A stretch of 64,000 bases of DNA from an uncultured virus (IMG/VR IMGVR_UViG_2806310815_000005) (Duplodnaviria; Heunggongvirae; Uroviricota; Caudoviricetes). The notes under the pieces were generated by a model. The model worked only from the letters and a program-made list of their open reading frames with translations, did not search any database and was not told the DNA's origin. Of this stretch, positions 7,240 to 52,467 are shown one piece after another. Within the stretch, counting starts at the first letter, position 1; every line of letters starts with the position of its first letter. The position numbers were made by a program, and so were the translations under genes. The DNA lies in the IMG/VR virus record IMGVR_UViG_2806310815_000005; one strand, given 5' to 3'.

Positions 7240-7704
7240 TATCTTAAAAATATTTCTATTGTGTCTAAAATCAGTTCTCTTCTTTGTTGTTTTGTTATTG
7301 TTCCTACTTTCTTAAACGACTTTCTAAACTCTTTTAAAACGTGTTGTTTGTATGTTTTTGTAACCGTTATGTTTATATTTTCGTCGGTTTCGTACACTTG
7401 TATATCTAGAGGGTGTTTCGAGTGCTCCCAATACACCCAGCCTAAAGCCGTTTCTTGAAGTAAGTCATCCATCACTTAGAAGTTTTCAATAAGTTTAAAA
7501 ATTCTGTAGCTTCTTTTAAGAGTTCTGTGGCCTCATTAGATAATTTTTCAAACTTGTCATTCTCACCTTTATAGGTATCTTTTAATATCTCACCTATTGT
7601 TTCAAAATCAGGTTTAATCAGTCCTTGATCTTTTAACCAGGGTACTAGTTCGGTCTTAACTAATCTTGTTAAGCCTTCTTTTCTGTAATCTATATTTTCC
7701 ATAA

Positions 7705-8091
7705 TTAAAACTTTTTACCGTTCTTTTTTACTCTGTTACCTACTTGATGATCAGGACGAGATTTATTAAAATTTCTTTTAGCTTCCATAATCTCTCCCGC
7801 ATTTTTACACCCAACAGCTCCTAACAAATCAAAAATTCTAATTAATGCATCTACAAGTTCAACATCTACCATACGATACTGTGGGAGCTTGTCATCCATT
7901 AAGTCTTTTCTATAACCTTCTGTTGCTTCAGATACTTCTGTGGTAATTAAATTTAGTTTTGTACCTATTACATAAGGTGTGAATTTGTGGTTTAACAGAC
8001 TTTCTCCTGTTTCAGGATCATTCCACCAACCTGCTTCTACATTCTTACTGTGTATATCTTTTACTAATTTATTTATTTGTTCTGCTGTCAT
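7705..8091 (-). CDS. MazG-like nucleotide pyrophosphohydrolase
   Basis: LITTEVSEATEGYRK...VELVDALIRIFDL...KRNFNKSR, the all-alpha NTP-PPase signature. Confidence 0.75.
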   Translation of the reverse strand: MTAEQINKLVKDIHSKNVEAGWWNDPETGESLLNHKFTPYVIGTKLNLITTEVSEATEGYRKDLMDDKLPQYRMVDVELVDALIRIFDLLGAVGCKNAGEIMEAKRNFNKSRPDHQVGNRVKKNGKKF

Positions 8092-13028: not shown

Positions 13029-13988
13029 TTATTTTCCCGTCTCTTTAAACCTTTTTCTTCTTTTCTCCTTGCCTCCGCAAAACTCATAATAATGGTTTCT
13101 ACAATACCCTTTACTACTGTGTTTTTTATCACAACCTTCTACTGAACATTTTCTTTCTTGTCTTTCAAAAGGAGAGTAGGAATCAAATATTTCCTTTTTT
13201 CTTTTAAGAAATATTGTAGAATCTTCATATAACCAATCTCTGAATTTAATACATTGATTAATACCACAATATCTTAAACTTCTTATCTCATCTTCTTTAT
13301 TGTGTCTATCATCTAGTTTAGTTTTAGAAAAATTTAATTCTTCCATTAATATTTCTTGTAAAGGCAGTAAAAAATTTATCGTGCCTACTATAGAAAACTG
13401 TTTTTGTTTATTTCCTGACACACTCCCATCGCCATCAAAATACCCCCTAATAAAATGCCTTTGTAAGTGTTTTGGTACTTGGTCTTCTGTTGGGAACGTT
13501 AAGGTATGTGTTTTTGCCTTACCACAACCTAATTCAACTAATCTCTCACTTATATGTTTATTGGTTATATCTAAATGGCAAATGTCACTATTCCCATAAC
13601 TAGTTTCATTCTTATAAAGATATAACTTCTTAGAGGGTTGTATAAGATTTTTAATTCTATCCAAAATGTTTCTATCGCTATTTTTTAGTACTATTTTTAC
13701 TGAATTTCTGTCAGTGTTATTATAACCGTCTGCATAAAGTAATCCTAACACATAGGCTTTTTCTTCCGTATCTATTTCATCAAAAAACTCTTCATTTATT
13801 TTGTATTTTCTTTGTAATTCCGATTGAGACTTTGTTTTGTAACCATTTCTTTTTAACATTCTACCTATACTTGCTGAAGTTATAGGGAAAAATTTACACA
13901 ACTCTGTGTAATTATAATTACCTGTTTCATACATTTCAAATAGTTTGTTCTTTTCTTCGTGTGATAATCTTCTCTGTTTTGTTTTCAT
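13029..13988 (-). CDS. LAGLIDADG homing endonuclease (two motifs) with N-terminal HTH and C-terminal Cys/His zinc motif
   Basis: AYVLGLLYADG and HFIRGYFDGDG motifs; C-terminal CSVEGC...GYCRNHY. Confidence 0.85.
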   Translation of the reverse strand: MKTKQRRLSHEEKNKLFEMYETGNYNYTELCKFFPITSASIGRMLKRNGYKTKSQSELQRKYKINEEFFDEIDTEEKAYVLGLLYADGYNNTDRNSVKIVLKNSDRNILDRIKNLIQPSKKLYLYKNETSYGNSDICHLDITNKHISERLVELGCGKAKTHTLTFPTEDQVPKHLQRHFIRGYFDGDGSVSGNKQKQFSIVGTINFLLPLQEILMEELNFSKTKLDDRHNKEDEIRSLRYCGINQCIKFRDWLYEDSTIFLKRKKEIFDSYSPFERQERKCSVEGCDKKHSSKGYCRNHYYEFCGGKEKRRKRFKETGK

Positions 13989-14018: not shown

Positions 14019-15095
14019 CTACTTCAACAACCGTGCCACACCTCTTTTCCTAACTACTTTGGCAGCATTTTCATCTGCATTACCACTATGAGAGCATTTC
14101 ACACATTTAAACGTCTCTTGGTTTGGTCTGTTTTCTTTTGATATATGTCCACAATTGTTACATTCTTGTGAGCTGTACTTAGCATCTACTTTTGTTACAT
14201 TTGTTTTATATTCTAAATAGCTTGAAAATTTACTCCAACTAACATCTGATATTGATTTTGAATAGTTTTTATTTTGTATCATTTTAGAAACTTTCAAATC
14301 TTCTAAAAATATGTATTGATAATTACTAGCCAAATCATTTGAAATCTTGTGTAAATAGTCTTCTCTAACTCTTTGTATTTTCAAATATAGCTTTTTAATT
14401 CTCTCCACTTGTTTATACCAATTGTTAGAACCTTTCTTTTTACGTGATAAAGATCTTTGTGCAACTCTTAGTTTCTTTTTAAATTTCTTAGCTGTATTTA
14501 TGTTTTCAAAATATTGCCCATCAGATGTTACTAAAAAATGTTTTATACCTAAATCACAACCTATTTTTGCTTGATTCTCGCATTTTGGTCTTTCATAGTC
14601 TGTAACAATTTGTAAGTACCATCCATCTGCTTTTTTAACTACTCTCGTTAATTTTATGTTTCCATTTACTTCCCTGCTTTTAAATATTTTTATTAATCCT
14701 ATTTTAGGCAATTTAAACTTATTCTTTTCAAATCTTAATATATTACTATTTTGTTTAAATTCTATACTTTTCCATTTTCTTTTAGATGCCCAATGTGGTT
14801 TTGATACCTTAACTCCTCTTTTTAAATCTTTAAAAAACTTATCATAACCTTTGTAAAGCCTCTCTATAACTCCTTGAAGCGTTTGTGCATTTACATTTGA
14901 AATCCATTTACACTCTTTTTTAAGTTCAGGTAGCTGTTTTGACAAATCATACTTACTTAACTTTACACCTTTAGAATAAGCTATTTCTTTTACTTCTTTG
15001 GCTAGATTATATATACATCGAGTTGTATTCAGATGCTCTATGAATATATTTTCTAAAGTTTTAGTAGTCTTTATTTTAAAGGTGTATGTTATCAA
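14019..15095 (-). mobile_element. tnpB: TnpB RNA-guided endonuclease (IS200/IS605/IS607 family); no tnpA seen
   Basis: N-terminal RCIYN HTH; RuvC residues GCDLG, FLEDL and NADENAA; zinc finger SQECNNCGH...FKCVKC. Confidence 0.9.
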
Positions 15096-16400: not shown

Positions 16401-17210
16401 TTCTTATGTTTTTTGTTAATACAAATATACTGTGATTTAGTCTTCTGTGAAAGTATTTAACTTGTTTTTAACTTTTACTGTTTTAAAGACTCGTCAAAAA
16501 CTTTAAAAGCCCAATGAGACAATTGTGTGTTATCATTTTCTCCGAAATAGTTTCTTAGGATTTTTATTTGCCAATCTTGTAACTCAACATTATATTTTTC
16601 TTTAGTGGTTTTTATATTAACCGTGTTATCGGGATTTACTTTTAATTGTTTTTTAAAATAGCCACGATTAGAATGTATCCCTACAGGTTCAATGTACTCT
16701 TCTTCGTATTCGACTAATACATCTTCAATTATATTACCTTTATTATACTCTTCTACATAGTATTCTATCCATTCTTCTGTTGGTTTTGGTTTATATTTTA
16801 TCCAAGGCGATTTATCAACAGTAAATTCAGGGTAATACCTTTCTACTTCCAATTCATCTGTTGTTGCGACTATTTTCTTACTACCTAAAGATGTTTCTTT
16901 TATGACAGCCTCTTCACTTGTTATCTTAAAAGGTCTTTTAGTATCTTTAGTTAAAACCCAATTTCCCTCCTTAATCTTTTCATCTGTTATTAGGTAAATA
17001 TCGTATCTAACTTCGTCTTCAGGGTCATTGAAATTAGCTTGATTATAATACAGCTTTCTTCCTTTGTGTGACCATAACTGACCGTCTTTACTTTCTAGTA
17101 GTATTACTTTTGCTTTTGTGTTCATTGTCATAATTTTCTTTTAACTCTGTCAATTTCATTTGTAAAGTATTGGTTTTACTGGTTTTTTGAGGTATTGTGT
17201 ATAAGTATAG

Positions 17211-17594
17211 TTATGTGGCATTAAAAGTCACCACTTCTATCACGTTCTGAAACTGCTTGAACTTCTGCAATCATATCAGTCCATCTTTTTTCAGCTTTAT
17301 CACATATACAGCAAATCACATATTTTCTACCGCAATATTCACAATTAGATAAATCACCAGATAAATTCTTTTTTACCTTGTCTGTTTTCCATTGTAATTC
17401 CATAACTTTATTGTATGTTTCAATATCTAATTGTAAACATTCTTCCTTTGTCAAAATTCTGCTCATAATAATTAACGCCACATAACACTGTATATAAGGC
17501 ATTGCCTCTGTGGTCTTTTTTAAAGTTTATACTAATTTTAATCTTTCATTCATTCTATTAAGGTTCGTGAGGGCAACGCCTCATATACTAAACG
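17211..17594 (+). mobile_element. Solitary integron-like gene cassette
   Basis: Starts at G|TTATGTGGC (17210-17219) and ends in an attC-like site whose left core GCCACATAAC (17477-17486) is the exact reverse complement. It contains one antisense ORF. Confidence 0.8.
17221..17502 (-). CDS. Cassette ORF, small Cys-rich (CxxC...CCxC) protein; probable start ATG 17466
   Basis: ORF track. The upstream extension lies inside the attC arm, so MSRILTKEE... is the more plausible start. Confidence 0.55.
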   Translation of the reverse strand: MPYIQCYVALIIMSRILTKEECLQLDIETYNKVMELQWKTDKVKKNLSGDLSNCEYCGRKYVICCICDKAEKRWTDMIAEVQAVSERDRSGDF

Positions 17595-17600
17595 TTACAC
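17477..17600 (+). repeat. attC-like recombination site
   Basis: ACATAAC-act-GTATATAAGGCATTGCC ... GGCAACGCCTCATATAC-taaac-GTTACAC. Confidence 0.8.
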
Positions 17601-21751: not shown

Positions 21752-22543
21752 TCATATTGGTGAATTTACTTCATTTAATATATCTTTTGAAACGTGTGTA
21801 TAGATTTCCGTAGTTTTTGAATTCTTATGCCCTAATACTAACTGTATTGTTCTTAAATTTTCTTTTGACTCAACAAGACTCGTCGCATAGCTGTGACGGA
21901 TAATATGTGGATTAATGTCTAAATACTTGTGAGATATGTTTCTTAAACTACTATAAGTGTACTTACCGCCAGTGCCTTCAAATAAAAATTGTTTTGGTTT
22001 GTACTCTTTAAAATACTCTCTTAATAAAATTAAATTATTTTTTGAAAAAGGTACATATCTATCTTTGTTAAATTTAGAATTTCTAACTAATAACAACATT
22101 CTACTTGAGTCTATATCTTCTATTTTTAAATTTAACACTTCAGATGCTCTTAAACCTGTACCAAACATCAAAGATAAGATAGCTTTATGTTTTAAATTAA
22201 CTATCTTGTTAATTTTCAGTATTAATTTTTGTTTCTCTATTACCCTTGGCAACTTTCGTTGTTTTCTAGGTCGATTAAAATCTACCTTGTTGTACTTCTT
22301 TCCTAAAACTTTAGAGTATAAGAATTTTAAACTACTTAAAACTTGATTTTGCTGAGAAACAGAAGAAAATCTATAATTCTTAATATAATTTTCAAAATCA
22401 GAAGAATTTAAATGGATGTACTGCTTCTCTATTTGACAAACAAATTCAGATATATAGTTTAAATATATACGTTGTGTATTTTCGGCGTAATTTAAAAATA
22501 TAAGTTTTTCACTACAAATCTTTATAATTTTTCTATTTTTCAT
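21752..22543 (-). CDS. Tyrosine recombinase (integron-integrase-like / XerD family), putative cassette integrase
   Basis: N-terminal SAM-like region (YAENTQRIY...SQQNQVLSSLKFLY). Catalytic R (GLRASE), K (KFNKDR), HxxR (HIIRHSYAT), LGH and Y (TTEIYTHV). Lies directly beside the cassette array. Confidence 0.9.
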   Translation of the reverse strand: MKNRKIIKICSEKLIFLNYAENTQRIYLNYISEFVCQIEKQYIHLNSSDFENYIKNYRFSSVSQQNQVLSSLKFLYSKVLGKKYNKVDFNRPRKQRKLPRVIEKQKLILKINKIVNLKHKAILSLMFGTGLRASEVLNLKIEDIDSSRMLLLVRNSKFNKDRYVPFSKNNLILLREYFKEYKPKQFLFEGTGGKYTYSSLRNISHKYLDINPHIIRHSYATSLVESKENLRTIQLVLGHKNSKTTEIYTHVSKDILNEVNSPI

Positions 22544-22574
22544 ACTCTAAAGTCTTTGTTTATAGGTGTTTAGA

Positions 22575-22604
22575 TATTAGTTATCGATATATAGTAGTTA
22601 TGCA
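22575..22604 (+). promoter_or_regulatory. Putative attI-like primary integration site
   Basis: ...tatcgatatatagtaG|TTATGCA. This G|TT core has no palindromic arm, lies 54 bp from the integrase start, and begins the first cassette. Confidence 0.6.
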
Positions 22605-22918
22605 CAAGCAAAAGAGCCTGTGCCTTCAACGTCATATCCTACCCATCTACTCACAAGAATAAATTTTACACCTTTAGGGGCTTTTTTCAACTTTCTTCTA
22701 AACGCTTTTACACTTCTACAACTTTGGTGCGAGCTATAACCTTTCTCACCTGCTTTGGGGTTTTGTTCCCATCTATTAGTATTATAATTAAACCACCATC
22801 CATTTTCAAAGGTCGTAAAGCCCATAAATCGGTAATTTATTCTTGTTCTCTTTTGTGCTTTATATTTAAGTTTCATCTTGTCTAATTTTTGCCAGATGCA
22901 TAACAAAGTGTATAGCAA
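22598..22918 (-). CDS. Cassette 1 ORF, hypothetical (probable start ATG 22876)
   Basis: ORF track; its stop codon is the reverse complement of the TTA in the G|TTA core. Confidence 0.6.
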   Translation of the reverse strand: MLYTLLCIWQKLDKMKLKYKAQKRTRINYRFMGFTTFENGWWFNYNTNRWEQNPKAGEKGYSSHQSCRSVKAFRRKLKKAPKGVKFILVSRWVGYDVEGTGSFACA

Positions 22919-22991
22919 ATAGCCTATTAATATTCAGTTCTTAATTCGTTGGTTCGTGCTTCGGCTACTTGCCATACACAAACCGTTCTAA
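22897..22991 (+). repeat. attC-like site 1
   Basis: TGCATAAC-aaa-GTGTATAGCAAATAGCC ... GGCTACTTGCCATACAC-aaacc-GTT. The left core is complementary to the cassette start GTTATGCA. Confidence 0.85.
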
Positions 22992-23027
22992 CAAATAGCA
23001 AAAATGCCTGCGCTAAGTTTGATCTAC

Positions 23028-23252
23028 TTATTTGTCTAAAGTTCCTATATGGTAAGAATCGATGTTATCAAACCAATAGTTTATCCCTTTTTCACTTAAA
23101 GTACGATCGATGTCTATTTGGCAAAGACAAGCATCGGGATTCACATCTTTATAAGCTTCGTCTCTTACCGGCTCGAACTTAAAGTGTTCTTTAAACTGTC
23201 TTGGTGTTTCAATTTCTTTTTCTCCTTCTTTTATTACTATCTTCTGGCATAT
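23028..23252 (-). CDS. Cassette 2 ORF (74 aa, ATA start or start-loss pseudogene)
   Basis: Manual translation: (ATA)CQKIVIKEGEKEIETPRQFKEHFKFEPVRDEAYKDVNPDACLCQIDIDRTLSEKGINYWFDNIDSYHIGTLDK*. There is an in-frame TAA two codons upstream of the ATA. Confidence 0.45.
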   Translation of the reverse strand: MCQKIVIKEGEKEIETPRQFKEHFKFEPVRDEAYKDVNPDACLCQIDIDRTLSEKGINYWFDNIDSYHIGTLDK

Positions 23253-23343
23253 AGTTTATCATTTTAAGTTATTACTGTTTCAGATTTTCCATACTTCCTT
23301 TTTGCGTTACACGCTTAGCCTTCGCTTATATTTTTACTACTTG

Positions 23344-23700
23344 CAAGAACTGTGTATAACAACCATACGTCTAAGGTATAAATCACTTTAATAGTCTTTT
23401 TTTGGCTGTCTCCATCTAATACCTTCCCATTCCCCGAAAACTAAATATCGTTCATTATCGTTACAAACCTTTTCAGCACTATCTCTTCTTACGTTCTTTC
23501 TTTCTCCATTAGGGTAAACTAACCAGCATTTATAATTTTCTCCTTCTGTAGATTTTAATCTTGCTCCTATTTGTAAAGCTTCTAGTATCATATTTTGATA
23601 ATCACTCATAATTCTGTTTTTAAAAGCCAAAAAAATTAATGGCTTGGTTATTAATTAATCGTTATTGTTGTAGTACGGTTGTTATACAATTCCGTTAGCA
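23344..23700 (+). repeat. attC-like site 2, expanded (about 355 bp) with an ORF in its loop
   Basis: CAAGAAC-tg-TGTATAACAACCATAC (from 23344) pairs with GTACGGTTGTTATACA-attcc-GTT (to 23696). Confidence 0.7.
23388..23630 (-). CDS. Hypothetical ORF located between the arms of attC site 2
   Basis: ORF track, 80 aa; probable start MSDYQNMILEAL. Confidence 0.55.
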   Translation of the reverse strand: MAFKNRIMSDYQNMILEALQIGARLKSTEGENYKCWLVYPNGERKNVRRDSAEKVCNDNERYLVFGEWEGIRWRQPKKDY

Positions 23701-23701
23701 A

Positions 23702-23959
23702 CTATTTGCCAATACGAATAGTATCGCCAATTTTAAAAGTCTTGTCACTATAAAATTTAAACCCTACATTATTTTCACCATCAGTAATTCTATATTCGTA
23801 TTTGCACTTTTCTTCTTCAAGTTCATATACATAGTACACTATCATTTTATCAGAGTCGGTTACTTTATCATTTGGTACTCTTGTGTCATCACAAGAAAAG
23901 AAAACAGTTGCTAACAAAGTATATAGTGTATAGCTAATAAGTGTTTTAAATCGTTTCAT
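23702..23959 (-). CDS. Cassette 3 ORF, probable lipoprotein
   Basis: Signal peptide ending VFFS-C (lipobox-like). The signal peptide is encoded by the attC3 left arm. Confidence 0.55.
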   Translation of the reverse strand: MKRFKTLISYTLYTLLATVFFSCDDTRVPNDKVTDSDKMIVYYVYELEEEKCKYEYRITDGENNVGFKFYSDKTFKIGDTIRIGK

Positions 23960-24039
23960 TTGTTTATCTATTTAAGTTATTAATAATTCAAAGTTCAAGC
24001 GTTTTTGGTCGCTACACACCATATACAACCACGTTGGCA
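23906..24039 (+). repeat. attC-like site 3
   Basis: AGTTGCTAAC-aaa-GTATATAGTGTATAGC ... GCTACACACCATATAC-aaccac-GTT. The left core is the exact complement of the cassette start GTTAGCAACT. Confidence 0.85.
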
Positions 24040-24045
24040 GTAATA

Positions 24046-24270
24046 TTAACGTCTAAACTTACCACCAACAACTTGTTCTAGTTTTCTTAAATCTTCTGGC
24101 TCTAAAACTATGGTCTGTCCGTTTTTGCTAACCGCTATTATTTGGTCGGTAAAACCAGCATATTCCTTGTTAGTTGTATTTCCGCACAGCTTCACCATAC
24201 TACTTCCAACATCACCTATAAATAATGCTTTGTTTTGTTCCGTTTCTAAGTCTATTTTATCCCAATTCAT
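24046..24270 (-). CDS. Cassette 4 ORF, hypothetical
   Basis: ORF track, 74 aa, ending 12 bp from the G|TT core. Confidence 0.6.
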   Translation of the reverse strand: MNWDKIDLETEQNKALFIGDVGSSMVKLCGNTTNKEYAGFTDQIIAVSKNGQTIVLEPEDLRKLEQVVGGKFRR

Positions 24271-24307
24271 TGTTTTATAATTTAAAAGTTTATTAATATT
24301 TACACAG

Positions 24308-24335
24308 CACTATTCATAGCTGCATCCCGTTAGTC
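24308..24335 (+). repeat. Right half of a degenerate attC-like site 4
   Basis: cactattcatagc-tgcatccc-GTTAGTC; no matching left arm or AAC core found. Confidence 0.45.
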
Positions 24336-24509
24336 GTAATAACGCCATTCAGTAATTGTATCTTTTTCTTGAGTTATTACTTCAACTGGGTATTTTATAG
24401 CCCACGTAGCACCCCACCCTTTTTGCCACTCTAATTTATATATTTTGCCATCTTCGTCAGGTAACAATGCATATAGCCCATTTCGTCCCTCAACGTACCA
24501 TATGCTCAC
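24330..24509 (-). CDS. Cassette 5 ORF (59 aa, GTG start)
   Basis: Manual translation MSIWYVEGRNGLYALLPDEDGKIYKLEWQKGWGATWAIKYPVEVITQEKDTITEWRYYD*. The stop overlaps the G|TTA core. Confidence 0.45.
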   Translation of the reverse strand: MSIWYVEGRNGLYALLPDEDGKIYKLEWQKGWGATWAIKYPVEVITQEKDTITEWRYYD

Positions 24510-24517
24510 CGTTAGGG
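24459..24517 (+). repeat. Short attC-like site 5
   Basis: AGGTAAC-aat-GCATATAG ... CCATATGC-tcacc-GTTAGGG. Confidence 0.6.
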
Positions 24518-24521
24518 TGCA

Positions 24522-24785
24522 TTAGGATATTTCAAATTGGGTTTGTGCAATCCCAAGCTCTTTAACTATCCCTAACTTTTCTTTTCTGTTTACTAAGTTT
24601 GTTGCGCTTTCCCCACTTCCGTAGGTGCAATTACTTTTCAAATCAGTTGCAGTCCATACAAAAGCACCACTACTTTTTTGATGCTTGCCTGCATTAGTTC
24701 TACGGAAGTTACTTAGTTCTAATCCTAAATCTTTTTTTATTCTTTGTTTAAGTCTTTCAAACATAATAATAACGCCACATAACAA
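24522..24785 (-). CDS. Cassette 6 ORF, hypothetical (probable start ATG 24764)
   Basis: ORF track; the upstream extension lies inside attC6. Confidence 0.6.
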   Translation of the reverse strand: MLCGVIIMFERLKQRIKKDLGLELSNFRRTNAGKHQKSSGAFVWTATDLKSNCTYGSGESATNLVNRKEKLGIVKELGIAQTQFEIS

Positions 24786-24898
24786 CGTATATAAAACATT
24801 GCTTTAGTGGTCTTTTGTTTAGTTAATTTATAATTCAATTCCTTGTGTTTATCTATTAAGTTTCGGCATACAACGTTTCATATACAAATACGTTGTAA
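24774..24898 (+). repeat. attC-like site 6
   Basis: GCCACATAAC-aac-GTATATAAAACATTG ... CAACGTTTCATATAC-aaatac-GTTGTAA; closely related to the site at 17477. Confidence 0.85.
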
Positions 24899-24907
24899 AC
24901 AATAAAA

Positions 24908-25078
24908 TTATTCAGTGCTTACAACAAAGAAGAAATGTTCATCTTCATCTCTACTTCTTACAGCTATACTATGGCTAATTATTTTATATCCTAATTTTTC
25001 TATTCTCTCTATTTCTTCTTTTAAAATGTAATGGGAGCAGTTGGGGTGTGCTTTAAATCTTATTATTCTGTCAGTCAT
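24908..25078 (-). CDS. Cassette 7 ORF (56 aa)
   Basis: Manual translation MTDRIIRFKAHPNCSHYILKEEIERIEKLGYKIISHSIAVRSRDEDEHFFFVVSTE*. Confidence 0.55.
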   Translation of the reverse strand: MTDRIIRFKAHPNCSHYILKEEIERIEKLGYKIISHSIAVRSRDEDEHFFFVVSTE

Positions 25079-25087
25079 AATTTTACA

Positions 25088-25224
25088 GTTTATAACAAGG
25101 GCTATAATTCATACCCTTGTTAGGTTTATGCTTAATTCAATATTTTTCTTTCTATTCACTTATGTACAGTTTGATAGGTTCGTGCATCTAATACGCTACG
25201 ACACCATACCACCATACGTTCAGA
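25088..25224 (+). repeat. attC-like site 7 (array end, arms poorly paired)
   Basis: ATAATTTTAcaGTTTAtAAC matches the complement of the cassette start GTTGTAAACAATAAAATTAT at 17 of 20 positions. The loop has the GGTTCGTG motif and the site ends catac-GTT. Confidence 0.65.
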
Positions 25225-28400: not shown

Positions 28401-30466
28401 AAATTTTAAGTTTCTAAGATAGCCATTACTTTCTGATGTGGTTTCGATATATTCTAAACCCTCGTTTTCTGCTATCTCTCTTACTGTTAGTGTTTCTTCT
28501 GTGTACATAATATTTTAAATATAAAAGTTATCGTCAATGTTTTCTACAATATACTTGATTATGGTCTCATCGTCCTGCTCAAATATTTCTTGAGGTACGC
28601 CATAAGAAAAGCTATTATCAAATTCTTCTATTTCTTTTTGACCTTGTAAATCCTCGTTTTGAGCACTTAATAGGAAATTAAAAATAAGATCATCGACGGT
28701 CTCTGTTGATACTCCAAAAATATGCTCAACACCCTCTTTGTCTGTTGCTGTTATTGTTTTTAGTGGTAATCCTTTATATAATTTCATAATTATTTTTCTA
28801 TTTGGTATATGGATTTTATAAACAAATCTTCTACGTTGTTAAGGTTAATGCTTTCTACAGTTTTTGATTCTGCTATTTCGGAGTTGTACTTGAAAAACAA
28901 ATCTGCTTTTCTTCTTGTAGGTAGTTCTTTCCACCACTTTATTTCTTTCTCTTCCGCCTCTTTAAAAAACTCTATGTAAGGATATTCGTTTTGTTCGTAA
29001 CCTAACGCATAGTGAGTTGCTCCTATCCTTTCTAAATCGTCTAAAAGCTCTCTTAAATTTTCTAATGGTCTTATTTCAAAGTCTGCGTGAGTTGTCTCTA
29101 TTAGTTTATATTCCATTGTGTTTTTGTTTATACAAATATAAGGTTTATTGTTGGTTTGTGGTGTTAAATTATTGGTGTAAAGCTATATAAATACATTGTG
29201 GTACAATACATACAAGCCATAAATCTAACTGTTCTGCTATTTCTCTTTCATCCTCAATAGCTTCTAAAACATCCGTATCATTTAAAGAAATATAAAAATA
29301 TCTATGTTCTGTTCTATCTAAACTTTCATAAACTTCTGTAAAAGTCATATCTTCATTAAGCTCTGTATCAATAATGCTGTTTAACTCATCTACTGTTACC
29401 TCTTCAAAAGTGTTTAAAGGTTGTTTTTGTTCTGAAACCATATCTTGAATAATACCAAAATACCTGTTGCTTAAATCATCCATTTTTTATGTTTTTGGCG
29501 GGTAAAAGAAAATCTTAATTTTCTAAAAAATACCCTAAATTAACACTTTTTTCTTATTGTAAAGATACAACTTTATTTCTATAATTTTGTTAATTAAATG
29601 TTAAAACTTTTCATTTCTTCCGCTGTAAATACTACAAGCTCTAGTCTATCTTCATCATAATCCCCTAAAATATCTTCAATATGTGTATCTATTTCAGCTT
29701 GTGTAGCAAACTTTCCTGTACCTAACCATTGGTTATCATCACTCATAATAAGATAGTCCATTCTCGGCTCTATATTCAAGTCATAACAGAATAAAAGTAC
29801 TTCGTTCAGTTCTAATTGTTCTAAAGCATATTGAGTTCCGTGTTCATTTTCAACTTCCAACCCTCTTTTAGTCTTGACTAATTTAGCCATATCTAAATTA
29901 TTTAGTTGAAAACTTGCTGTTTCTGTTATAGGACTCTTTCTAATTAATTCTATATATTTTTGTTTTGTAGTCATAATATTGTTTTTATAAAGATAAGGAT
30001 TATTATTGGTTTAAGTTGTTAAGATAGTGTTAAAATATAAGGTTGTTGGGTACTAATATTCTGCCTTTTTCATACTCAACATCGTGTACTAAACTGCCAT
30101 CTCTAAAAGTCTTTGATTCTACTATTTTACCTCTATATAATTTCAAATTGTCTTTATCTCTTACTTTTTTTGGGTTATCTGCCCAAATTTGACTTTTTAA
30201 ATAAGAAATTCCATAAAAATTGATATACATAACCTTAAATATTTAAAAATTCTTCTAATGTTTTTGCTTTTAAACTTTTTTCATAACGTTTAATACCGTT
30301 TAAAACTGCTTCTAATACTTCGGTATCTTTTACGCCTTGTTTCTCGTGAAAACCAAACTTTAAATCGTTCTCTGAATAAACAGAAATACCTACATTGTAA
30401 TTGCTATCTGTTTCAACATCGTATTTATGTACTTCGTAATTGTCTATTGTAAATGCTAACATAATA

Positions 30467-30940
30467 TTATCTAATATAATAAGTTTCTCCGTTGTATTCT
30501 ACTTCTGCATAATCTATTTTCATATCTTCGGCAATACCTGCCCAATCAATATTGTTTTCAATTATTGCGGGTGTGTTGTCTGCAATATAGCCACAATCTC
30601 TACAAAAATCTTCGCAATACTCTTCAAAATAAGATTCGTGTATAATTGATTCTCCATACTTAAAATCGCTTGAATTGTTTTCTAATTCTTCGCAAAAGTC
30701 TTCAATATCTTCGTACTCTTCAATAAGATCCGAACAAGTTACTATAAAAGACTCTTCATTTAAAAACTCAATTTCATCAAAACTATCTGGTATTTCAAGT
30801 TCTTCCGTTTCTTCCTCTTTATACTCGTTATGATTTTCCGCCCAATCAATATAAGCGTCTAAAATATCATTTTCAAGTTCTTCTTTGTATTCAATTAAAT
30901 CTCTGCTATCAAATACTGTGTTGTTAATTGGATTGCTCAT
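30467..30940 (-). CDS. Acidic protein with ArdA-like C-terminus (putative antirestriction DNA mimic)
   Basis: Very Asp/Glu rich; C-terminal IENNIDWAGIAEDMKIDY...GETYYIR resembles the ArdA 'YIDYEA.ARD' region. Confidence 0.5.
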   Translation of the reverse strand: MSNPINNTVFDSRDLIEYKEELENDILDAYIDWAENHNEYKEEETEELEIPDSFDEIEFLNEESFIVTCSDLIEEYEDIEDFCEELENNSSDFKYGESIIHESYFEEYCEDFCRDCGYIADNTPAIIENNIDWAGIAEDMKIDYAEVEYNGETYYIR

Positions 30941-33900
30941 AATTGTACAATGTTTTTTGTTATTACTTAATGTAAATATATGTGTTTTAGTTGTAGTATT
31001 GTGTTGGAGTTTTGTTAAACTTGTAAAAGTTGTTCTCTTTTATTTAGTGGTACATTGTTCTTTACAAGCGTTTTTAACTTGTTTTCCTTCTGTTTCTTTT
31101 TGTCCTCCAGGTAACAGTCAATACTATCCTCAGCGTATTCTAATAAACCGCTTTTTCTGTGATTATCTCCGTAAAAGCCTCCACAAGAGTCTCCTGTCTC
31201 TTCTATTGTGTAGTAGTAAACATCTCCCCACGCCCACGCTTCAAACAATTCAAAATTACATTCAAAAGTTTCATCGTTCATACTTTCATAAGTCCTACCT
31301 GTTATTTTACCAAATTCGGGTGTCCAACACATAAAAACTTCAGCATAATCTCCTTGACTATAACCTCTTGATGCTCCACTATAATGTTTGATATTAAATT
31401 CTTCGCAAAAAGCTGTTTTATTATCAATACTTTCATCCAACCAACTATAAAGGATATCATCTTTTATCATTTCTGTTCTATCATAATCTTCTAGCGGATA
31501 ATCTTCTTTAAATTCTTCAACATCTTCGCCCATTAAATCTAAAAGTCTTGATTGATGTCTTTTAACTTGATTATAGGATAGGTAATTTCTAAGATAATCT
31601 ATAATATCCCCTTTTGAAAAATCACCTTCCCAATTTCTACCTCCTTCATACATTAAAGGTACGCAACCATCCCATTCTTCAAAAGGGTTTTCTGAATACT
31701 CTTCTCTTTTAACTTCAATTTCAATTCCTTTGTAAATAATAGTTTCCATAATCTCTTAGTGTTTTAATTTGTTATAGTAAATATACAACTGTTGTTTTTA
31801 TTTCTGTGTTAAGGTTGTATTAATATTTTAACTGTTTTTGTTTTTCTTCGCCGCATAATGCGCATTCATCACTATCAACGGTAATTATAGTAGGTGTTTC
31901 TGTTTCACAACAACTGCAACTAGAGTAAGCCATTTTTGTAACATCTGCATAATCATATACGCTTTGGTGGTCTTGACTGTAAAGTATCTTGCAAACCTCT
32001 CTTTGTGCTTTACCTAAACTACTTTTAACGATAAATTTGTTTCTTGATTTCATAACTCTTAGTGTTTTTTGTTTTACATTATAAATATACGCCGCATAAA
32101 ACAAACGGCAAAAAATAAAATCTTAATCTTCTGTTAAATACTCTCCACACCATCTACAATAAGGTTTCCCTTGTTCATCTTCAAAAGGTTCTGATTGATA
32201 CCTTAAACTATCTAAACAACAATTATTTTCCATTTGCCGCTTCTAAAATCTGTTTCTTATTCATCTTATCAAAACCATAAAAATCTAAAAAAGCGTTGAT
32301 ATGTCGGGCTGTAGTTGCGGAATACCAACCGTTAATTGTCATTTTATTGTTTAAGTGATCGTAACTTGCAACCTCTGTGTTATAAGAGAATAGTTTTGAT
32401 TCTCCGCTTTCTGTTACTACTGTTGCTTTATTGTTTGTCCCTACTAGTGCAAATACTTTCATAATTTCGTTTTTAAACGTGTTTTATTTATTAAGTGGTA
32501 TCAATATACCAAAATTATATTAAAGTGCCTTAGAAGTTTTTAAATTGACTTCTTTTAGCAAGTAATCGTGCCAATCTCCGTTACCATTCCAATTTTTCCT
32601 TACCTCTCGACGTTCCTCAAAAGAGATTTTATCCATTACATAGTCTGTAAAAACATCATAAGCCTTGTTAGGATTTTCTTTTGTGTATGGGTAGTCTTTT
32701 TTAATCTGTTCGTAAGTTGCATATACCTTCATTATACCGCCTCTTTTACATTAATATAACTTGTTTCCTCATTATCATCAAACATATCATCTGATGAATA
32801 ACCCTCATTTTTAAGGTAAAACTCTAAAATTCCTGCAAAAGCTTTTTCAAACTTACTGTCATCTTCATCTAAGTACTCGTTAAACCACTTATTAGCGTCT
32901 GTACTAAAGAAACTAATAAATCCGCTATGACTACTATACTTATCTTCTAAAAACGTCTTAAAATCGCTTATATGAGTTTTACAGTATTCTATTAAAGTGT
33001 TAAAATCTTCATCTGAAACTTTGTAAGTGCAATAAATCGCATCATTTTCAAAGTTATATTCTCTAGGATTGTAAACCTCTTCAAAATCAATATCGATACT
33101 AAAGCCGTCTAATTTAAGATAGTTCCAAATAGAATTGATACAACTTTCAGCAACTCTAGTTTCATAATCTTTATAATCAAACTCAACGTTATCTGAATAT
33201 AAATCTTCATCTTCTAAATACTGCTCTTCGGCAATATAGCTTTCAAAGATAGTAGAATAAAATCCTGGAAAAATAGGTAAGTAACTTGCAATAATTTTCA
33301 TAATAGTGTTTGTTTTAATTTGCTACTCAAATATACGGCTTAAAAGATCACCGCAAAAACATTTAATGCTAAAATTCTGTTAAGATTCATTTGCTAGTTT
33401 AACACCAATAACTTTAACTTCATCGTTTGGCATATCGTTTAGCTGTCTCCAATACTTTGTTTGCTTAGGTCTAATATATTTACCCTCGTGTAGTACTGTC
33501 TCATTTCCGTAGTGATCTCTAAAATAGAAAATCCAATTTTGCTTAGTGTATCTCATAACTCTTATTTAACATTTACTGAAGTGTGCCAATTTCCGTTAAA
33601 ATCTTCCTCCTCTTCTACAAAGTTCATAACAAAGGATTCAACTTTTTTGTTTAAAGTTTTATATTCGTGCTCTACTTCTGACAATCTTTTTGAATAGTAG
33701 TCTAAAGCTTCTACAAAAGCCTCTTGCTCGGTTTTGGTTTTCATAGCTAGATTCATACCTCTCGATTCATCATATAACCAAAAACCGTCTTTACCTTTTG
33801 ATAGAGTAATATTGTCGTCTTTAAAAATTAATTCGTGTTTCATAATATAAATATAGTGTTTGTGTTTTTTAATTACAATATAAAGATAAGCATAAAAACC

Positions 33901-36588
33901 TACCGTAAGGAATAATTAGTGTTAATGTTCTGTTAAATTAAAGTACCGTCATCTAAAATTGCTTCAAGCCCTTTTGCGTACTTAATAGCTTCTTTTATAT
34001 CTGTAAAACTTTCAATATTACAATCATTAGTGCTGTTATCAAAAGCGTTCCATTTCTTGTTTTCAAACCAACACCCACCTTTAATTTCTTTATCTTCAGG
34101 GTGTTCGTAAAATTCGCAAGTGTGGTTATTCAAAATTTCTTGTAAATGTTGTTTTGCTTTTTCTCCGATAAGTATCATAACTCTATTCTTTTTAAATTAC
34201 ATAGTAAATATACAAAACATTTACCGCCGCATAAAATATAAATTGTTAAAAATATCATAAAATAAAACCCCATACAACAAAAAATCCCCTATCAAAACAC
34301 TACTAAAGATAGAGGATTAAAAACACAATTATGAAACACCTTTATTTAGTGCCTACTGTAAGACTGTATATAGTTTCAATACAGCTATCTAAATTTCGTC
34401 ACAAGGTTAAAGGCTTTACCTCAACTATCAAAAGATATTAAAATTCATCTCCTTTCTCTCCAAAGAATATTATAAAATCATTTGGGTTACTATTATTCCA
34501 TACTTTAAATACATCCCCGTAGTCTACATCTTTACCTATGTGCAGTACATTTTCCCACTCTTCGGGTCTTTCGGATGTTTTTTCAACTATAAAGTCAGTC
34601 ATAAGTATCTTTTTAAATACTGTTTTCTTTTTGTCTTTTCTTTGCTGTTCTATTGTGGTGTATTTTGTCATTGTTTCTTATTGTTTTTTGTACTTCTTAA
34701 CGGCTTTTTTTAGCTCGTCGAATTTATCGTAGGTTATTAATTGGCAACCTACTTTAATCCCCTTCTCTGTTAGTTCCGCTTCATAACTGTCTGTTATTTG
34801 TACTTTTACTGTTTCTTTGTATACATCTATTGCGGCGATAAATTCGGGAAATGATAATACTTTAAATAAATATTTATCTACATCATTTTTATTACCCCCT
34901 ATAAATTCTTTACCGTTGTATATAATGTACGTGTTTCTTTCGTCTGTTGAATAGCCTTGTAATATTCTGTATTTTGTGCTTTCATATACTTTTAACCCTT
35001 TACCCTCAGCCATTTGTAGTATTACCTCAGCTTGTAGTTGTGTCGGTTTGTAAATTGCTATTTTTTTCCATTTGTGTTTTATTTTTTGTAAATGTATAAA
35101 TTGTTTTCTTTTGCGGCAAGTTTTTAACATAAAATTATAGGCTAGGTAAAACTTTATAACCTCCATCCACATAATTAATACCTTGTACTAATTACATACC
35201 CTCCCTAACCTATACTTTAAAAACTACTACTCAAACAATTCTACTATTATTGTGATTCCTGTTCCGCATTTACTCTGTAAATATACTATTATTTTTTCAT
35301 TGTTGATTTACTTTTAACTTTTGTTTAACTGTTTGTTTTAGCGGCATTTTTAATACCCTCTTTAACTGCTTCAAAAGCTTGCACCGTCCTATCATTATTG
35401 AAAATAGGTGTCATTCTATAAGATTGCATTAACTCATAAAATTCCTGGCTGTTTAGATATTCTTCCATAGCTTAACAATTCTTTAGATCACTATACAACT
35501 GTTCTAAATTGTAGTTTGCAATTAATTCTTTTCTTGTGTCGGTCTTACTTTGTGCCGATTGTTTTAAAGCTTCCTGTTTGCTTATTTGTGCTTTTAGGTA
35601 GTCTTTGTACTGTTGTTTGTCTTGTTGATTGTACGTCATTTTATTTGCTGTTTTGATTGTTTTAAAAATAGATAATACTAAGTAGTAACGCCATCACTAT
35701 CGGGCTTCTATCGGGTATATTTAAACCTTTAGCCTTTAGTAGTTATCTATATTGTAAAGTTATGGTGCATTTAGAAACAACCATACCAAGGTTCAATTTC
35801 TTCGCCATCAGCTACTATTTCTGCGTAAGTCCAATACTTACTTTCAAGGTCGTTTACACTTTCGATGAATTTTTCAGCTTCTTCTCTTGTATCGAAAAGT
35901 TTAGGTTTAATCCAGTCAGCACCTTCACGACCTTTACCTCTTGCTACTATTACTATAAATGATTTCATAAAATAAAAACTCACCATAACACTGTATAAAA
36001 TCAAGTGGGGTTATGTGCTAATTTTAACCACTTCGGCTGTTTAATTTAGTTTTTGCAAGTCGGAATGTGTTAGCCGTTCAATCCCCCACCTGCTTTTATA
36101 CTTTAACGTTAATTCTTTTTTGTTTTCTGCTGTGTTAAAGGTATGCTAATTCTTAGCAAAGATTAGTATCGATACTTGTACCTCTGCTTCATACTTTGTT
36201 AATCCTCCGTAATGATTAGAAGTGCCATTAATTCCTACCCCATAATTATTTTTTGCCTCCTTCCATACGTAAACATCATTTAAACCGTATAAATTTTTAA
36301 AGTACTGTTGTTTTCTTCTTCCGTCGATTGTCATAACTATTAATTTAAGCGTTTTCTAATTTATTATTTTTAGGATTGAAGTATCTTACCGTCTGACCTA
36401 TAACTTTATTGTTACGGTGTGTATTTTTCATTGGTGCAGTTATCATATACCGCCCATCGCTTTGCTTATACACCTTAAAATCTTTCATTGTTTGTCCGAA
36501 AAACTTTAAAGATTTACGTGTGAAAAAATGCGGTGATGTCTCGCTTGATAGTCTTTTAATGTCGTAGATTGTCATTTTAGTAGTGTTT

Positions 36589-36735
36589 TTAGTTAAATTT
36601 ATTTAGTTCTAAGGTACATTCTAAACATAGTAAATCCCCGTAAACTTCATTATTTACATCAATTTTACTGTTATCAAAATTACTCTTACAACAAGGGCAC
36701 TTTAGTATATTTTTGTTTAGGTCTTGTGCTTTCAT
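36589..36735 (-). CDS. 48-aa Cys-rich (CPCC...CxxC) protein, copy 1
   Basis: MKAQDLNKNILKCPCCKSNFDNSKIDVNNEVYGDLLCLECTLELNKFN; start refined using the paralog. Confidence 0.6.
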   Translation of the reverse strand: MKAQDLNKNILKCPCCKSNFDNSKIDVNNEVYGDLLCLECTLELNKFN

Positions 36736-38200: not shown

Positions 38201-38347
38201 CTAGTTATAGCTATTTAATTCTAAAGTACATTCTAAACATAGTAGGTCGCCATAAATTTCGTTATTTATATCAACTTTACTATTATCAAAATCACTCTTA
38301 CAACAAGGGCAATTTTTTATATCTTTGTTTAGGTTTTGTGCCTTCAT
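38201..38347 (-). CDS. 48-aa Cys-rich protein, copy 2
   Basis: Manual translation MKAQNLNKDIKNCPCCKSDFDNSKVDINNEIYGDLLCLECTLELNSYN*. Confidence 0.6.
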   Translation of the reverse strand: MKAQNLNKDIKNCPCCKSDFDNSKVDINNEIYGDLLCLECTLELNSYN

Positions 38348-51639: not shown

Positions 51640-51847
51640 GTTGTTTAATAAACGTATCTATCATTCCGTGAGCCATTTTCTCATATGTTCTTATTTCATA
51701 TCCATTTTGTTGACACATTTTAATTGCGGAAAGTAGCTTCCCTATTTCCTGCGTTGTTGGTTTTGAAATTTCTAAATAATTTTTATTAGGTTTAATCCAA
51801 TAATCTAATTGTTTTTCTACACTCATTGTTGTTTTTGCATTTCTCAC
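51626..51847 (-). CDS. Hypothetical cassette ORF (probable start MSVEKQ)
   Basis: ORF track; begins just after the G|TT core on the minus strand. Confidence 0.5.
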   Translation of the reverse strand: MRNAKTTMSVEKQLDYWIKPNKNYLEISKPTTQEIGKLLSAIKMCQQNGYEIRTYEKMAHGMIDTFIKQPMEV

Positions 51848-51981
51848 AACGTGTTTGTATATGAAAAGTAACGTGTTGATTTGCGTTATTTTTCAGCCGT
51901 TGTTGTTTGTTGCGTGATAAACTTTTCTCTCGGGTTATCACTTGCCGAAGTTATTTTTTATATACGGTGTTGTACGTAGGC
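51843..51981 (-). repeat. attC-like site, reverse polarity
   Basis: Plus strand: CTCACAAC-gtgttt-GTATATGAAAAGTAAC ... GTTATTTTTTATATAC-ggt-GTTGTACGTAGGC. Confidence 0.75.
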
Positions 51982-52048
51982 TTTTTATTTTCAGATTGTT
52001 GTTTATCAGTCCAAATATTTTTCTAAATTAGTCAAAAACTTTTATATT

Positions 52049-52264
52049 ATGTCAAACATAAAATTACACTCGATAGTAAAACTGAAAGCTGAACCTAATT
52101 CGGGTGAAATGGTTGTCGAAGATATCAAATCATCTTATCGTAACTTTCCACACGCTACATCTGAAAATCCTGTTGTATTCGTTAAATTTTGGAATCCTAA
52201 AACGCACAATTACGAGTTTGCTCAATTCTACTCACAAGTCCTTATAGTTGTTGATAAAGAGTAA
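52049..52264 (+). CDS. Small YodC/DUF2158-like protein inside a cassette
   Basis: IVKLK....EMVVE...V.V.FW......F....L pattern. Confidence 0.5.
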   Translation: MSNIKLHSIVKLKAEPNSGEMVVEDIKSSYRNFPHATSENPVVFVKFWNPKTHNYEFAQFYSQVLIVVDKE

Positions 52265-52408
52265 ACTTTTTCTCTTTCCATTAAGTCAGTTACGTAATCA
52301 TACATCATTTTAAAACTTGTTACGTTGTCAGTTTTATTCAGTATTGTTTTTATTATGTAACTGATTGTTTCTTTTTCTAATTTTTGTTCTGTGTTCATAC
52401 GTTTTTTA

Positions 52409-52467
52409 GCTTACGTACAACGTGTTTGTATATGGCGCGTTTTAATGCGTTATATACTCTGTTGTGC
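52409..52467 (-). repeat. Short attC-like site, reverse polarity
   Basis: Plus strand: GCTTACGTACAAC-gtgttt-GTATATGGCGCGT-ttta-ATGCGTTATATAC-tct-GTTGTGC. The core is complementary at 12 of 13 positions to GTTGTACGTAGGC at 51969. Confidence 0.8.

Follow-up and report, generated by a model that had tools for sequence, protein, structure and literature searches.

An insertion-less tyrosine recombinase as the candidate enzyme of integron-like gene-cassette arrays in large phages

The window analysed in this work is a 64 kb stretch of DNA from an uncultured virus (IMG/VR record IMGVR_UViG_2806310815_000005), and it is a piece of a large phage genome. On its minus strand it carries the gene of a tyrosine recombinase (Table 1), which we consider likely to be the site-specific recombinase of a phage-borne, integron-like platform of gene cassettes. 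Integrons are defined and searched for by means of an integrase that has an extra segment, and the software in use discards the recombinases in which this segment is absent. The comparison of the window with related loci supports the idea that the phage system would work like an integron, yet its enzyme is not an IntI as this protein is currently defined.

The recombinase gene is intact, its stop codon overlaps the start of the next gene (ATGA), and the operon also holds a 3'-5' exonuclease gene and other genes of DNA metabolism. According to Pfam the protein consists of a SAM-like N-terminal domain (Phage_int_SAM_4, 2.3e-10) and the catalytic domain (Phage_integrase, PF00589, 6.9e-29), with no others; both matches had been proposed as a check in an earlier note made from the sequence of the window alone. 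PHROGs files the protein under the integrases. The residues R132, K157/K160, H213, R216, H239 and Y248, which we take to be the catalytic residues, are invariant in the alignment of 26 relatives, and Pfam, this alignment and the fold matches agree on the fold and the R-K-H-R-H/W-Y catalytic set of a tyrosine recombinase. The top curated NCBIfam model is the XerA-type NF040815 (162 bits, cut-off 220; scores against the cut-offs are given for the window protein alone). The integron-integrase model TIGR02249 gives 148.5 bits for a cut-off of 265, with the match split into two stretches, the XerC and XerD models give 129 (cut-off 335) and 126 (cut-off 330), and NF011946 gives 112 (cut-off 435). 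None of the curated NCBIfam IntI and Xer cut-offs is reached by the window recombinase; the score above a curated family cut-off that would denote a Xer dimer resolvase is absent for the XerA, XerC and XerD models, and the IntI-specific hit that the earlier note had named as contrary to its proposal did not appear above threshold with TIGR02249 and NF011946 (intI_Cterm was not among the models). All 26 of the 26 aligned clade members match the same NCBIfam models at E 1e-10 or better.

The segment that is specific to IntI, of about 35 residues near patch III and including the helix I2, is absent from the window recombinase. In the alignment with IntI4 (PDB 2a3v), residues 18-200 of the query correspond to 17-206 of IntI4 and residues 210-254 to 264-308, so that residues 207-263 of IntI4 (57 residues) stand against 9 in the query and about 48 IntI4 residues have no counterpart. 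The XerA protein of P. abyssi (4a8e) aligns with the recombinase end to end in one stretch. The AlphaFold model (pLDDT 85.9) shows helices at 168-181 and 197-208 with short strands alone between them, and an extra, I2-like helix is not predicted in the IntI-specific region of this model; its best fold matches are XerA 5hxy, IntI4 2a3v and XerA 4a8e. The spacing between the FLFEG and HIIRH motifs is 22 residues, and the C-terminal tail reads LGHKNSKTTEIYTHV. The length of 263 amino acids (aa), the short FLFEG-HIIRH gap, the missing I2 region and the IntI-like tail had all been described in the earlier note, and the translation, the IntI4 alignment and the protein model agree with that description.

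In the protein database the recombinase has 7,013 relatives at E 1e-10 or better; the five closest are 65-76% identical, and the next are a very large set of proteins of 266-268 aa at ~55%. None of the cultured phages in the collection has a relative above 34% identity. Of 570 candidate stretches in the viral collection, 531 code for a relative, and 83 loci were taken from this collection with flanks of up to 10 kb per side, many of them from contigs of 100-360 kb. The neighbours of the annotated relatives are phage genes (for example RNA ligases, thymidylate synthase, helicase, primase), and the recombinase comes after a run of small open reading frames (ORFs) on the same strand.

A maximum-likelihood tree of 59 rows (LG+C20+F+G4, careful search; the row L065, too short, was left out, and the midpoint root serves for drawing only) splits the two E. 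coli rows, XerC and XerD, from the rest with support 100/100. The IntI clade (3 rows, 100/94) is sister to 54 insertion-less proteins (88/91). Within the latter, the array-linked phage clade comprises 30 rows (97/91), the phage clade together with the Ingeline and Freya integrases 32 rows (98/98), and the sub-clade containing the window seven rows (100/100). IntI and Xer are thinly sampled in this tree; with this sampling the three IntI proteins stand separate from the window recombinase, and the topology supports the placement of the recombinase clade in an insertion-less family that would be sister to IntI and not to E. coli XerC/D, that is, outside IntI, where the earlier note had suspected its lineage to be.

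The spacers of the arrays hold imperfect inverted repeats with the form xTAAC-G-GTTGnGTATATGAG..., loop, ...CTTATATACnnT-GTTAx. A search for pairs of AAC and GTT with complementary inner flanks, at a strict threshold, found 434 elements in the 403,221 nucleotides (nt) upstream of the gene in 59 loci, 32 elements in the 559,358 nt downstream of it, and 14 in shuffled upstream sequence of the same length. The density of TAACG is 1.65/kb upstream versus 0.51/kb downstream or antisense. At least three hairpins are found upstream in 46 of the 49 viral loci whose flank measures 4 kb or more, the median being 6; the loci below three hairpins are L147 (0), L135 (2) and the window (2). These figures bear out the expectation of the earlier note that homologs would lie beside similar repeats, and in the window itself, where the recombinase had been called array-associated, the strand of the gene carries six hairpins of one family immediately upstream of it (22901-25123). 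An adjacent array of cassettes with folded sites that have AAC/GTT cores is present both in the clade and in the window.

The cores of the hairpins are mostly TAACG (330/396) and TGTTA (338/396), and their lengths cluster near 48, 88 and 125 nt. Their layout consists of xTAAC, an unpaired spacer of the GGTTG type, a stem of the GTATATG type, a loop of 40-120 nt, the return stem and GTTAx. All 91 elements of 85-92 nt were aligned with the window element 22900-22989; for these 92 rows RNAalifold predicted 20 pairs, 19 of which are preserved through changes on both sides, and several paired columns carry three or four pair types at comparable counts. Three positions are mostly G.T, one of them in 87 of the 92 sequences. 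With DNA parameters the coding strand folds more stably in 299 of 330 elements and the complement in 27, the mean folding energies being -14.6 kcal/mol for the coding strand, -12.4 for the complement and -6.8 for shuffles.

In integrons, the folded site of a cassette is cut in its AAC/GTT core, and the linear cassette consequently begins with the partner of its own end. The phage arrays show the same signature on a larger scale: the 22 nt from the GTTA of one hairpin onwards are the complement of the 22 nt up to the TAAC of the next, beyond the ORF. This pairing of arms across the ORF (score of at least 10) occurs in 62% of 292 pairs, versus 1% with the hairpin's own left flank and 1% with random flanks, and from its sequence pattern it appears to be the footprint of cassettes cut inside a folded site. 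In total 352 distinct cassettes were delimited, whose median length is 392 nt; in 319 of them the longest ORF shares the strand of the recombinase, and in 31 it has the opposite one. Many of the ORFs start within the loop of the hairpin, and they finish within about 20 nt of the core. Since the matches between arrays begin 3-5 nt ahead of TAAC and extend across the hairpin into the ORF behind it, hairpin and downstream ORF travel together. The hairpin sites alternate in orientation along the arrays. Two readings of the arrays were dropped: that many of the spacers were 'half sites', given that the pair search put their 3' halves inside the presumed next ORF, and that the stop codon of the ORF always lies in the TAAC core, given that 76 of 389 cores end an ORF of at least 40 aa (16 of 396 for random TAA). 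The longest ORF ends at a TAAC core in 53 of the 352 cassettes.

A motif that could act as the docking site of these cassettes, TAAC^TAyTATATAT (the caret marks the junction), precedes the start of the recombinase gene by 33-103 nt, mostly by 43-61 nt. As a regular expression it is found in 71 of 79 related loci, although in a few of them the last match falls on a second AAC some bases further along and the junction can be seen a little upstream of it; the eight remaining loci have near-variants. The linkage of motif and gene spans 43-76% protein identity and 23-47% G+C. In L001, L002, L003 and L007 the sequences are 84-92% identical from the docking core into and past the gene, those directly left of TAAC are unrelated, and the homology ends at xTAAC^. 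A second group, L098, L110 and L111, is 97-100% identical where sequence is shared. A cassette block of 960 nt (99.9% identical; L098 583-1542) borders on the docking site in L110 and L111 and sits 2.4 kb away from it in L098, and the order of this block and a second one (100% identical) is reversed between L098 and L110. The cassette end ...TGTGTATAAC is followed by a hairpin in L098, but by the docking site TATTTTATATAAAC in L110 and L111; likewise, the cassette end ...GAATATAAC continues as GGTCGCAG... in one record and as GTCCGATG... in the other, which are unrelated sequences. Because only TAAC is common at these joints, neither homologous recombination nor misjoins at repeats can explain them. 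Among the matches of at least 95% identity, 6 of the 10 distinct right-hand ends fall on YAAC, and the left-hand ends (8 cases) are blurred by the similarity of the hairpins. The conserved motif, the breaks of homology and the alternative contexts mark an attI-like site beside the gene, at which cassettes would be inserted. Together, the hairpin arrays, the docking junction, the exchange and the tree lend comparative support to the proposal of the earlier note that this may be a separate lineage of cassette integrases that IntI profiles miss.

From these observations the following mechanism can be proposed. An excised cassette would be a circle in which the left arm, TAAC, the hairpin, GTTA and the right arm fold together into a single long site equivalent to attC. 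The enzyme would bind an outer arm (nnnnnTAA/TTAnnnnn) and an inner arm (GTATAT/ATATAC) that flank a central region of 6-7 nt, and would cut at or beside TAA^C on the folded coding strand. The folded single strand would recombine with the double-stranded docking site, which has the same TAAC-N5-7-TATAT layout, and the excision of a cassette would be a recombination between two folded sites. The folding strand would be the coding strand, stabilised by the conserved G.T pairs, and geometrically it would match what is called the 'bottom strand' (5'-AA^C) in classical integrons. In an enzyme that lacks the I2 segment, the choice of the strand may rest on the asymmetric spacer (about 6 nt versus 3 nt) and on the G.T pairs, both of which are candidates to replace the extrahelical bases that the I2 helix reads. 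The cassettes would face the recombinase and bring their own leader and start codon in the loop of the hairpin.

Several points weigh against this interpretation. We infer the catalysis of cassette exchange by this recombinase from comparative data, and the work of Messier and Roy in 2001 is said, going by its title alone, to have found the IntI-specific domain necessary for the activity of IntI. The G.T asymmetry would also fit an RNA structure on the transcript, and the hairpins may aid expression, be it in addition to recombination or in its place. The 48-nt hairpins of some phages hardly differ from one another, and homologous recombination could cause part of the reshuffling. The compared records are metagenome assemblies, which could be misjoined at repeats, a caveat that does not apply to the junctions at the docking site because those junctions share no repeat. 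The Polaribacter phage P12002L has four elements recognised by the covariance model and no homolog of the recombinase. In the window array only two elements pass the strict threshold, several covariance matches have E >1, and for 15 small ORFs of the window (of the array cassettes, their neighbours and the outlying cassettes) tblastn at E 1e-5 found no homolog in the fetched loci. Since no homologs were found there, an exchange of the window's own cassettes cannot be demonstrated. Finally, Cury et al. 2016 (PMC4889954) concluded, in the part of the article that concerns them, that recombinases other than IntI found close to attC sites do not belong to IntI.

It could be argued that the enzyme is an ordinary phage integrase or a Xer-like resolvase of dimers or concatemers, and that the hairpins are expression elements that permit the homologous shuffling of small genes. 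Such a shuffling at promoter stem-loops has been proposed for T4-type phages, large phages in which repeated stem-loops (PeSL cassettes) stand between small accessory genes that are shuffled among relatives. The operon with its exonuclease and other DNA-metabolism genes and the integrase label in PHROGs would agree with an enzyme of this kind, as the G.T pairs that favour the transcribed strand and the ORF starts in the loops would agree with expression elements, and P12002L, with elements and no recombinase, and the near-identical 48-nt hairpins leave room for homologous exchange. We nevertheless consider this alternative unlikely. Joints that share only TAAC, of a cassette end to the docking site or to unrelated hairpins, are beyond homologous recombination; expression elements leave the pairing of arms across the ORF unexplained; and the array and the gene occur together in 46 of 49 loci, whereas no array is found upstream of the distant homologs. 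The PeSL system differs further in that its shuffling is ascribed to homologous recombination, with no dedicated recombinase, docking site or split-hairpin complementarity across ORFs. The gene does not have the features of an integrase of lysogeny, with a place at a prophage end beside attP/attL and an arm-binding domain: phage genes lie on both sides of the docking site in the window, which consequently is not a prophage end, and the protein has only the SAM-like and the catalytic domain. No dif-like palindrome was seen beside the recombinase gene, and the TAAC-N5-7-TATAT layout near it resembles a simple site, but its arms are short.

It is still less probable that the cassettes are mobile but moved in trans, by a classical IntI or by a recombinase of this family that the host encodes, and that the phage gene has another task. 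Bacteroidota genomes encode relatives beside arrays of their own, the P12002L array is without a recombinase, and, as described for one predicted attC site of that phage in the relevant part of Qi et al. 2023 (PMC9892861), IntI1 recombined it in E. coli. A recombinase acting in trans would not account for a docking motif that stays at a near-fixed distance (about 45-60 nt) from the phage gene in nearly all loci; from this tie, an enzyme and a site linked in cis are expected. It is highly improbable that we are dealing with miniature transposons bounded by inverted ends or with a segment-inverting shufflon, in spite of the inverted repeats that flank each ORF, the alternating orientation of the sites and the TnpB gene at 14019-15095, given that the end sequences vary from unit to unit with only their complementarity kept, unlike ends bound by a transposase, that no transposase accompanies the arrays, and that the uniform orientation of the ORFs (319 versus 31) argues against frequent inversion.

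The likeness of the phage platform to classical integrons (IntI1, Vibrio IntI4/IntIA, 2a3v) includes a tyrosine recombinase gene beside a docking site, a one-sided array and cassettes that mostly hold a single ORF. In both, the hairpins of the sites are imperfect and have conserved AAC/GTT cores, covarying stems and a spacer that stays unpaired; one strand folds better than the other, the crossover lies inside the AAC/GTT core and each cassette starts with the partner of its own end. In classical integrons intI points away from the array, and so does the phage gene when the sites are read on the G^TTA strand; the G^TTRRRY core and the use of the bottom strand in integrons are described in the part of Qi et al. 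2023 (PMC9892861) on which we rely. In contrast, the phage enzyme has no counterpart of the ~48-residue IntI segment and scores below the cut-offs of the IntI models. The phage ORFs lie on the opposite strand with respect to the polarity of the site, the hairpin precedes the ORF and its loop often contains the start codon, the pairing of the arms reaches 10-20 nt past the core, the cassettes are shorter (median 392 nt) and the hosts are large phages.

The recombinase resembles XerA and XerC/XerD in its length, two-domain fold and catalytic set, and its best structural and hidden Markov model matches are to XerA, but E. coli XerC/D split off in the tree as stated above. Xer sites can also bound mobile genes: the pdif modules of Acinetobacter plasmids are genes bounded by Xer sites in alternating orientation. 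The difference is that no site of the 11-6-11 dif type was seen here, and that the phage sites vary in sequence and conserve their folding.

Classical integrons and integrase-less clusters of attC sites (CALINs) have been reported in phages, including P12002L, by Qi et al. 2023 (PMC9892861). In the part of that article that deals with them, attC-like sites flank DNA methyltransferase genes in this virulent Polaribacter phage, an IntI1-dependent recombination of one predicted site was shown in E. coli, IntI was sought with IntegronFinder and no integrase was found in such phages; Xer-like recombinases are not mentioned in that part. The four elements of P12002L that the covariance model recognises belong to the hairpin family described here, and the difference is that the arrays of this work have a recombinase that looks cognate and a docking site. 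The P12002L (L181) elements at 38034-39246 and 14501-14626 flank a DNA methyltransferase gene and small genes in this cultured phage. Recombinases other than IntI were counted by Cury et al. 2016 (PMC4889954), whose pertinent section gives only 50 of them near attC sites in complete genomes, including four that stand between IntI and Xer and have fewer than three sites apiece; a group of integrons with an 'inverted integrase' is also named in that section. Full-text searches of the literature yielded no account in which an insertion-less integrase is described together with phage cassette arrays, and the supplements of these papers might list such recombinases.

The cargo of the cassettes was scanned with Pfam for the 100 longest of the 315 cassette ORFs of at least 45 aa, and 18 of them had a match. 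These are nine DNA methyltransferases (six N6_N4, two D12 and one MT-A70), the Thoeris inhibitor Tad6, two domains of the ADP-ribosyltransferase type, an RNA ligase, SmpB, a dual-specificity phosphatase, YopX and two domains of unknown function. With its orphan DNA methyltransferases, Tad6 and ADP-ribosyltransferases, the known cargo is suggestive of a stock of genes for counter-defence. The ORF with Tad6 is at L119 8226-8861, that with ART-PolyVal at L137 6627-7139 and that with Arr-ms at L130 7848-8279.

Beyond the phage clade, homologs of 29-45% identity were analysed in 38 cellular loci. None of them has three or more upstream hairpins (27 have none, seven have one and four have two), and the docking motif is in place in none of the 38. 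Downstream of the gene, at least two hairpins are present in 13 of the 35 cellular loci with at least 3 kb of flank, and 9 of those 13 have a junction ...TATA..A^GTTA-arm 96-177 nt past the gene that matches the end of the first cassette. In L018, from a Sphingobacteriaceae bin, three hairpins about 1.2 kb apart show the correct arm pairing and the recombinase points at them. Judged from these loci, the wider insertion-less family would be linked to arrays in some bacteria too, in the 'inverted' layout. Cellular relatives (L018, L023, L024 and others) resemble the inverted-integrase integrons in that the gene points towards the array and in having a junction and cassettes with the hairpin after the ORF; the difference is that the published ones were found by an IntI-specific profile, whereas the relatives described here align to the 263-aa query without room for the segment. 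The homolog of L018 (5662-6786) has 374 aa, with an N-terminal extension of about 110 residues that is not in the phage proteins. In L061 (a Spirochaetota bin), downstream of a 36%-identical homolog, one TAAC...GTTA hairpin and the junction 96 nt past the recombinase gene are followed at 7312-10119 by seven hairpins that are almost identical, measure about 56 nt and have AAAC...GTTT cores; they are spaced by 260-1150 nt and may be a divergent family of sites. In G002, the genome of L012 (Prolixibacteraceae), 70 stretches match the integron-integrase profile, none above its cut-off and several in identical copies, which suggests an expanded family of mobile tyrosine recombinases. The fetched stretches of Cellulophaga phage Ingeline and Polaribacter phage Freya, whose proteins (34% identity) form the sister clade, hold no covariance element at E 0.01 and, by eye, only vague TAAC-like sites.

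It is conceivable, and we put it forward with reserve, that the whole insertion-less family sister to IntI constitutes a second, older or parallel, class of integron integrases, which would act on the arrays of large phages and also on those of Bacteroidota, Spirochaetota and Bacillota, where the gene faces the array. In that case the enzyme that many 'integrase-less' attC clusters lack would come from this family, a single branch would have gained the I2 segment later on, the recombination of folded DNA would not depend on that segment, and phages would stock and reshuffle counter-defence genes, mirroring the defence stores of bacterial chromosomal integrons. For the phage clade itself, an insertion-less lineage tied to hairpin-bounded cassettes in hundreds of viral contigs would, if confirmed, widen the definition of the integron, explain some 'orphan' cassette clusters and allow a direct test of how a simple Xer-type enzyme chooses the folded strand. 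It points to a mechanism for the exchange of accessory and counter-defence genes among large marine phages. The compact pair of recombinase and site could be tried as a tool, and P12002L, which is in culture and does not encode the recombinase, has elements that might be used as a test substrate.

Table 1. The recombinase gene, the candidate docking site and the cassettes of the window (the caret marks the junction; E values are those of the covariance model).
Feature	Position	Strand	Basis
Tyrosine recombinase, Xer/IntI type without the IntI-specific segment	21752..22543	-	ORF of 263 aa, Pfam/NCBIfam, structures, tree
Candidate docking site (attI-like), GCATAAC^TACTATATATCG	22585..22600	-	motif; 53 nt before recombinase start
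Cassette 1, beside docking site: hairpin 22901-22988, ORF from ATG 22877 to TAA 22598	22598..22985	-	pair score 12
Decayed stretch: ORF 23388-23630 and a frame without canonical start	22986..23694	-	covariance match 23608-23698, E 7.5, weak
Cassette: hairpin 23912-24036, ORF 23702-23959	23695..24033	-	pair score 11
Cassette: hairpin 24207-24332, ORF 24046-24270	24034..24329	-	pair score 10; E 5.5, weak
Short cassette: compact hairpin 24461-24514	24330..24511	-	E 0.0014
Cassette: hairpin 24783-24895, ORF 24522-24785	24512..24892	-	pair score 10; E 0.006
Short cassette: compact hairpin 25092-25123 (CTAAC-AAGGG...CCCTT-GTTAT), ORF 24908-25078	24893..25123	-	E 2.1, weak
Solitary complete cassette: hairpin 17483-17597, ORF 17221-17502	17209..17597	-	pair score 12; E 8e-5
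Reverse-oriented cassette among minus-strand genes: hairpins 51847-51972 and 52417-52465, ORF 52049-52264	51847..52465	+	E 0.0027 and 0.1
Isolated hairpin of the same family, early-gene region	35986..36111	-	pair score 13; covariance match 35985-36040, E 6.2, weak

In comparison with its relatives, the array of the window is a modest, short and partly decayed example. It extends over 22598-25123, with cassette cores at 22985, 23694, 24033, 24329, 24511, 24892 and 25119. The covariance model was derived from hairpin alignment A2, of which the hairpin 22901-22988 is a row, and its 68 bits are hence due to construction. The TAA of the docking site doubles as the stop codon of the last cassette ORF. 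The pairing of arms was seen by eye in three cassettes of the array (ends 22598, 23695 and 24034): in cassette 1 the GTTA is followed by an arm (TGCATCTGGCAAAAA) that pairs with the end of the cassette (TTTTGCTTGTGCA-TAAC), and in the cassette that starts at 23695 the arm GTTA-GCAACT pairs with the end AGTTGC-TAAC at 23694. The ORF of the latter looks like a lipoprotein signal peptide. The decayed stretch has half-site remnants only, which are 5'-half-like (~23375; core 23694-23697). The cassette ORFs of the array have no Pfam (E 1e-4) or PHROGs (E 1e-5) match. The cassette at 24512 has its hairpin and right arm in common with the solitary cassette at 17.5 kb, whose end TTAATGCCACA-TAAC (TTAATGCCACATAAC) pairs with GTTA-TGTGGCGTTAA (GTTATGTGGCGTTAA) and is followed by TAAC^TATACTTATA, which is similar to a docking site. 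In the reverse-oriented cassette the arm GTTG-TACGTAGGC pairs with GCTTACGTA-CAAC; around it, at 51409-52398, two plus-strand and two minus-strand small ORFs interleave with overlapping 3' ends. One contig of the sequencing run X6 (assembled contigs, not raw reads) is identical to 22354-22604 and has 22 further letters that are absent from the window, a hint of another cassette at the docking site there. Parts of the window array are uncovered among the assembled contigs of this run, and none of its contigs joins across.

The window has a G+C content of ~30% and nearly all its genes are on the minus strand until ~59.4 kb. Pfam and PHROGs identify ribonucleotide reductase, thymidylate synthase, a LAGLIDADG endonuclease, TnpB, a C5 DNA methyltransferase, Cpn10, PhoH, RecA, HNH endonucleases, the 3'-5' exonuclease and the large terminase subunit. 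A search of the window for tRNA genes found none, and Rfam at gathering thresholds gave no match within it. The public sequencing runs that match the window are marine metagenomes. The sole match to DNA of a cultured phage is 69 nt long (25076-25144, 90% identical, Cellulophaga phage phi13:2); it covers a compact hairpin of the window, and in that phage it sits under an annotation as 'hypothetical protein'.

In the region 29000-39500 (minus strand) nearly every small ORF is preceded by a spacer of one layout, ..TTAACA.., about 20 nt, GTATATTTAC/G, and AAAACACTA ahead of the start. This layout differs from the cassette hairpins, and presumably it is a repeated promoter of the Bacteroidota type (TAnnTTTG), which it resembles, with the leader of an early-gene region. 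The TnpB-type gene (14019-15095, minus strand) has OrfB_IS605 and Cas12f-like TNB domains and adjoins the LAGLIDADG endonuclease gene (13029-13988, minus strand), and a strong inverted repeat at 14958-15091 overlaps its 5' end. In the early region, a direct repeat of 163 nt with 86% identity is found at 36586-36748 and 38198-38360, 1.6 kb apart.

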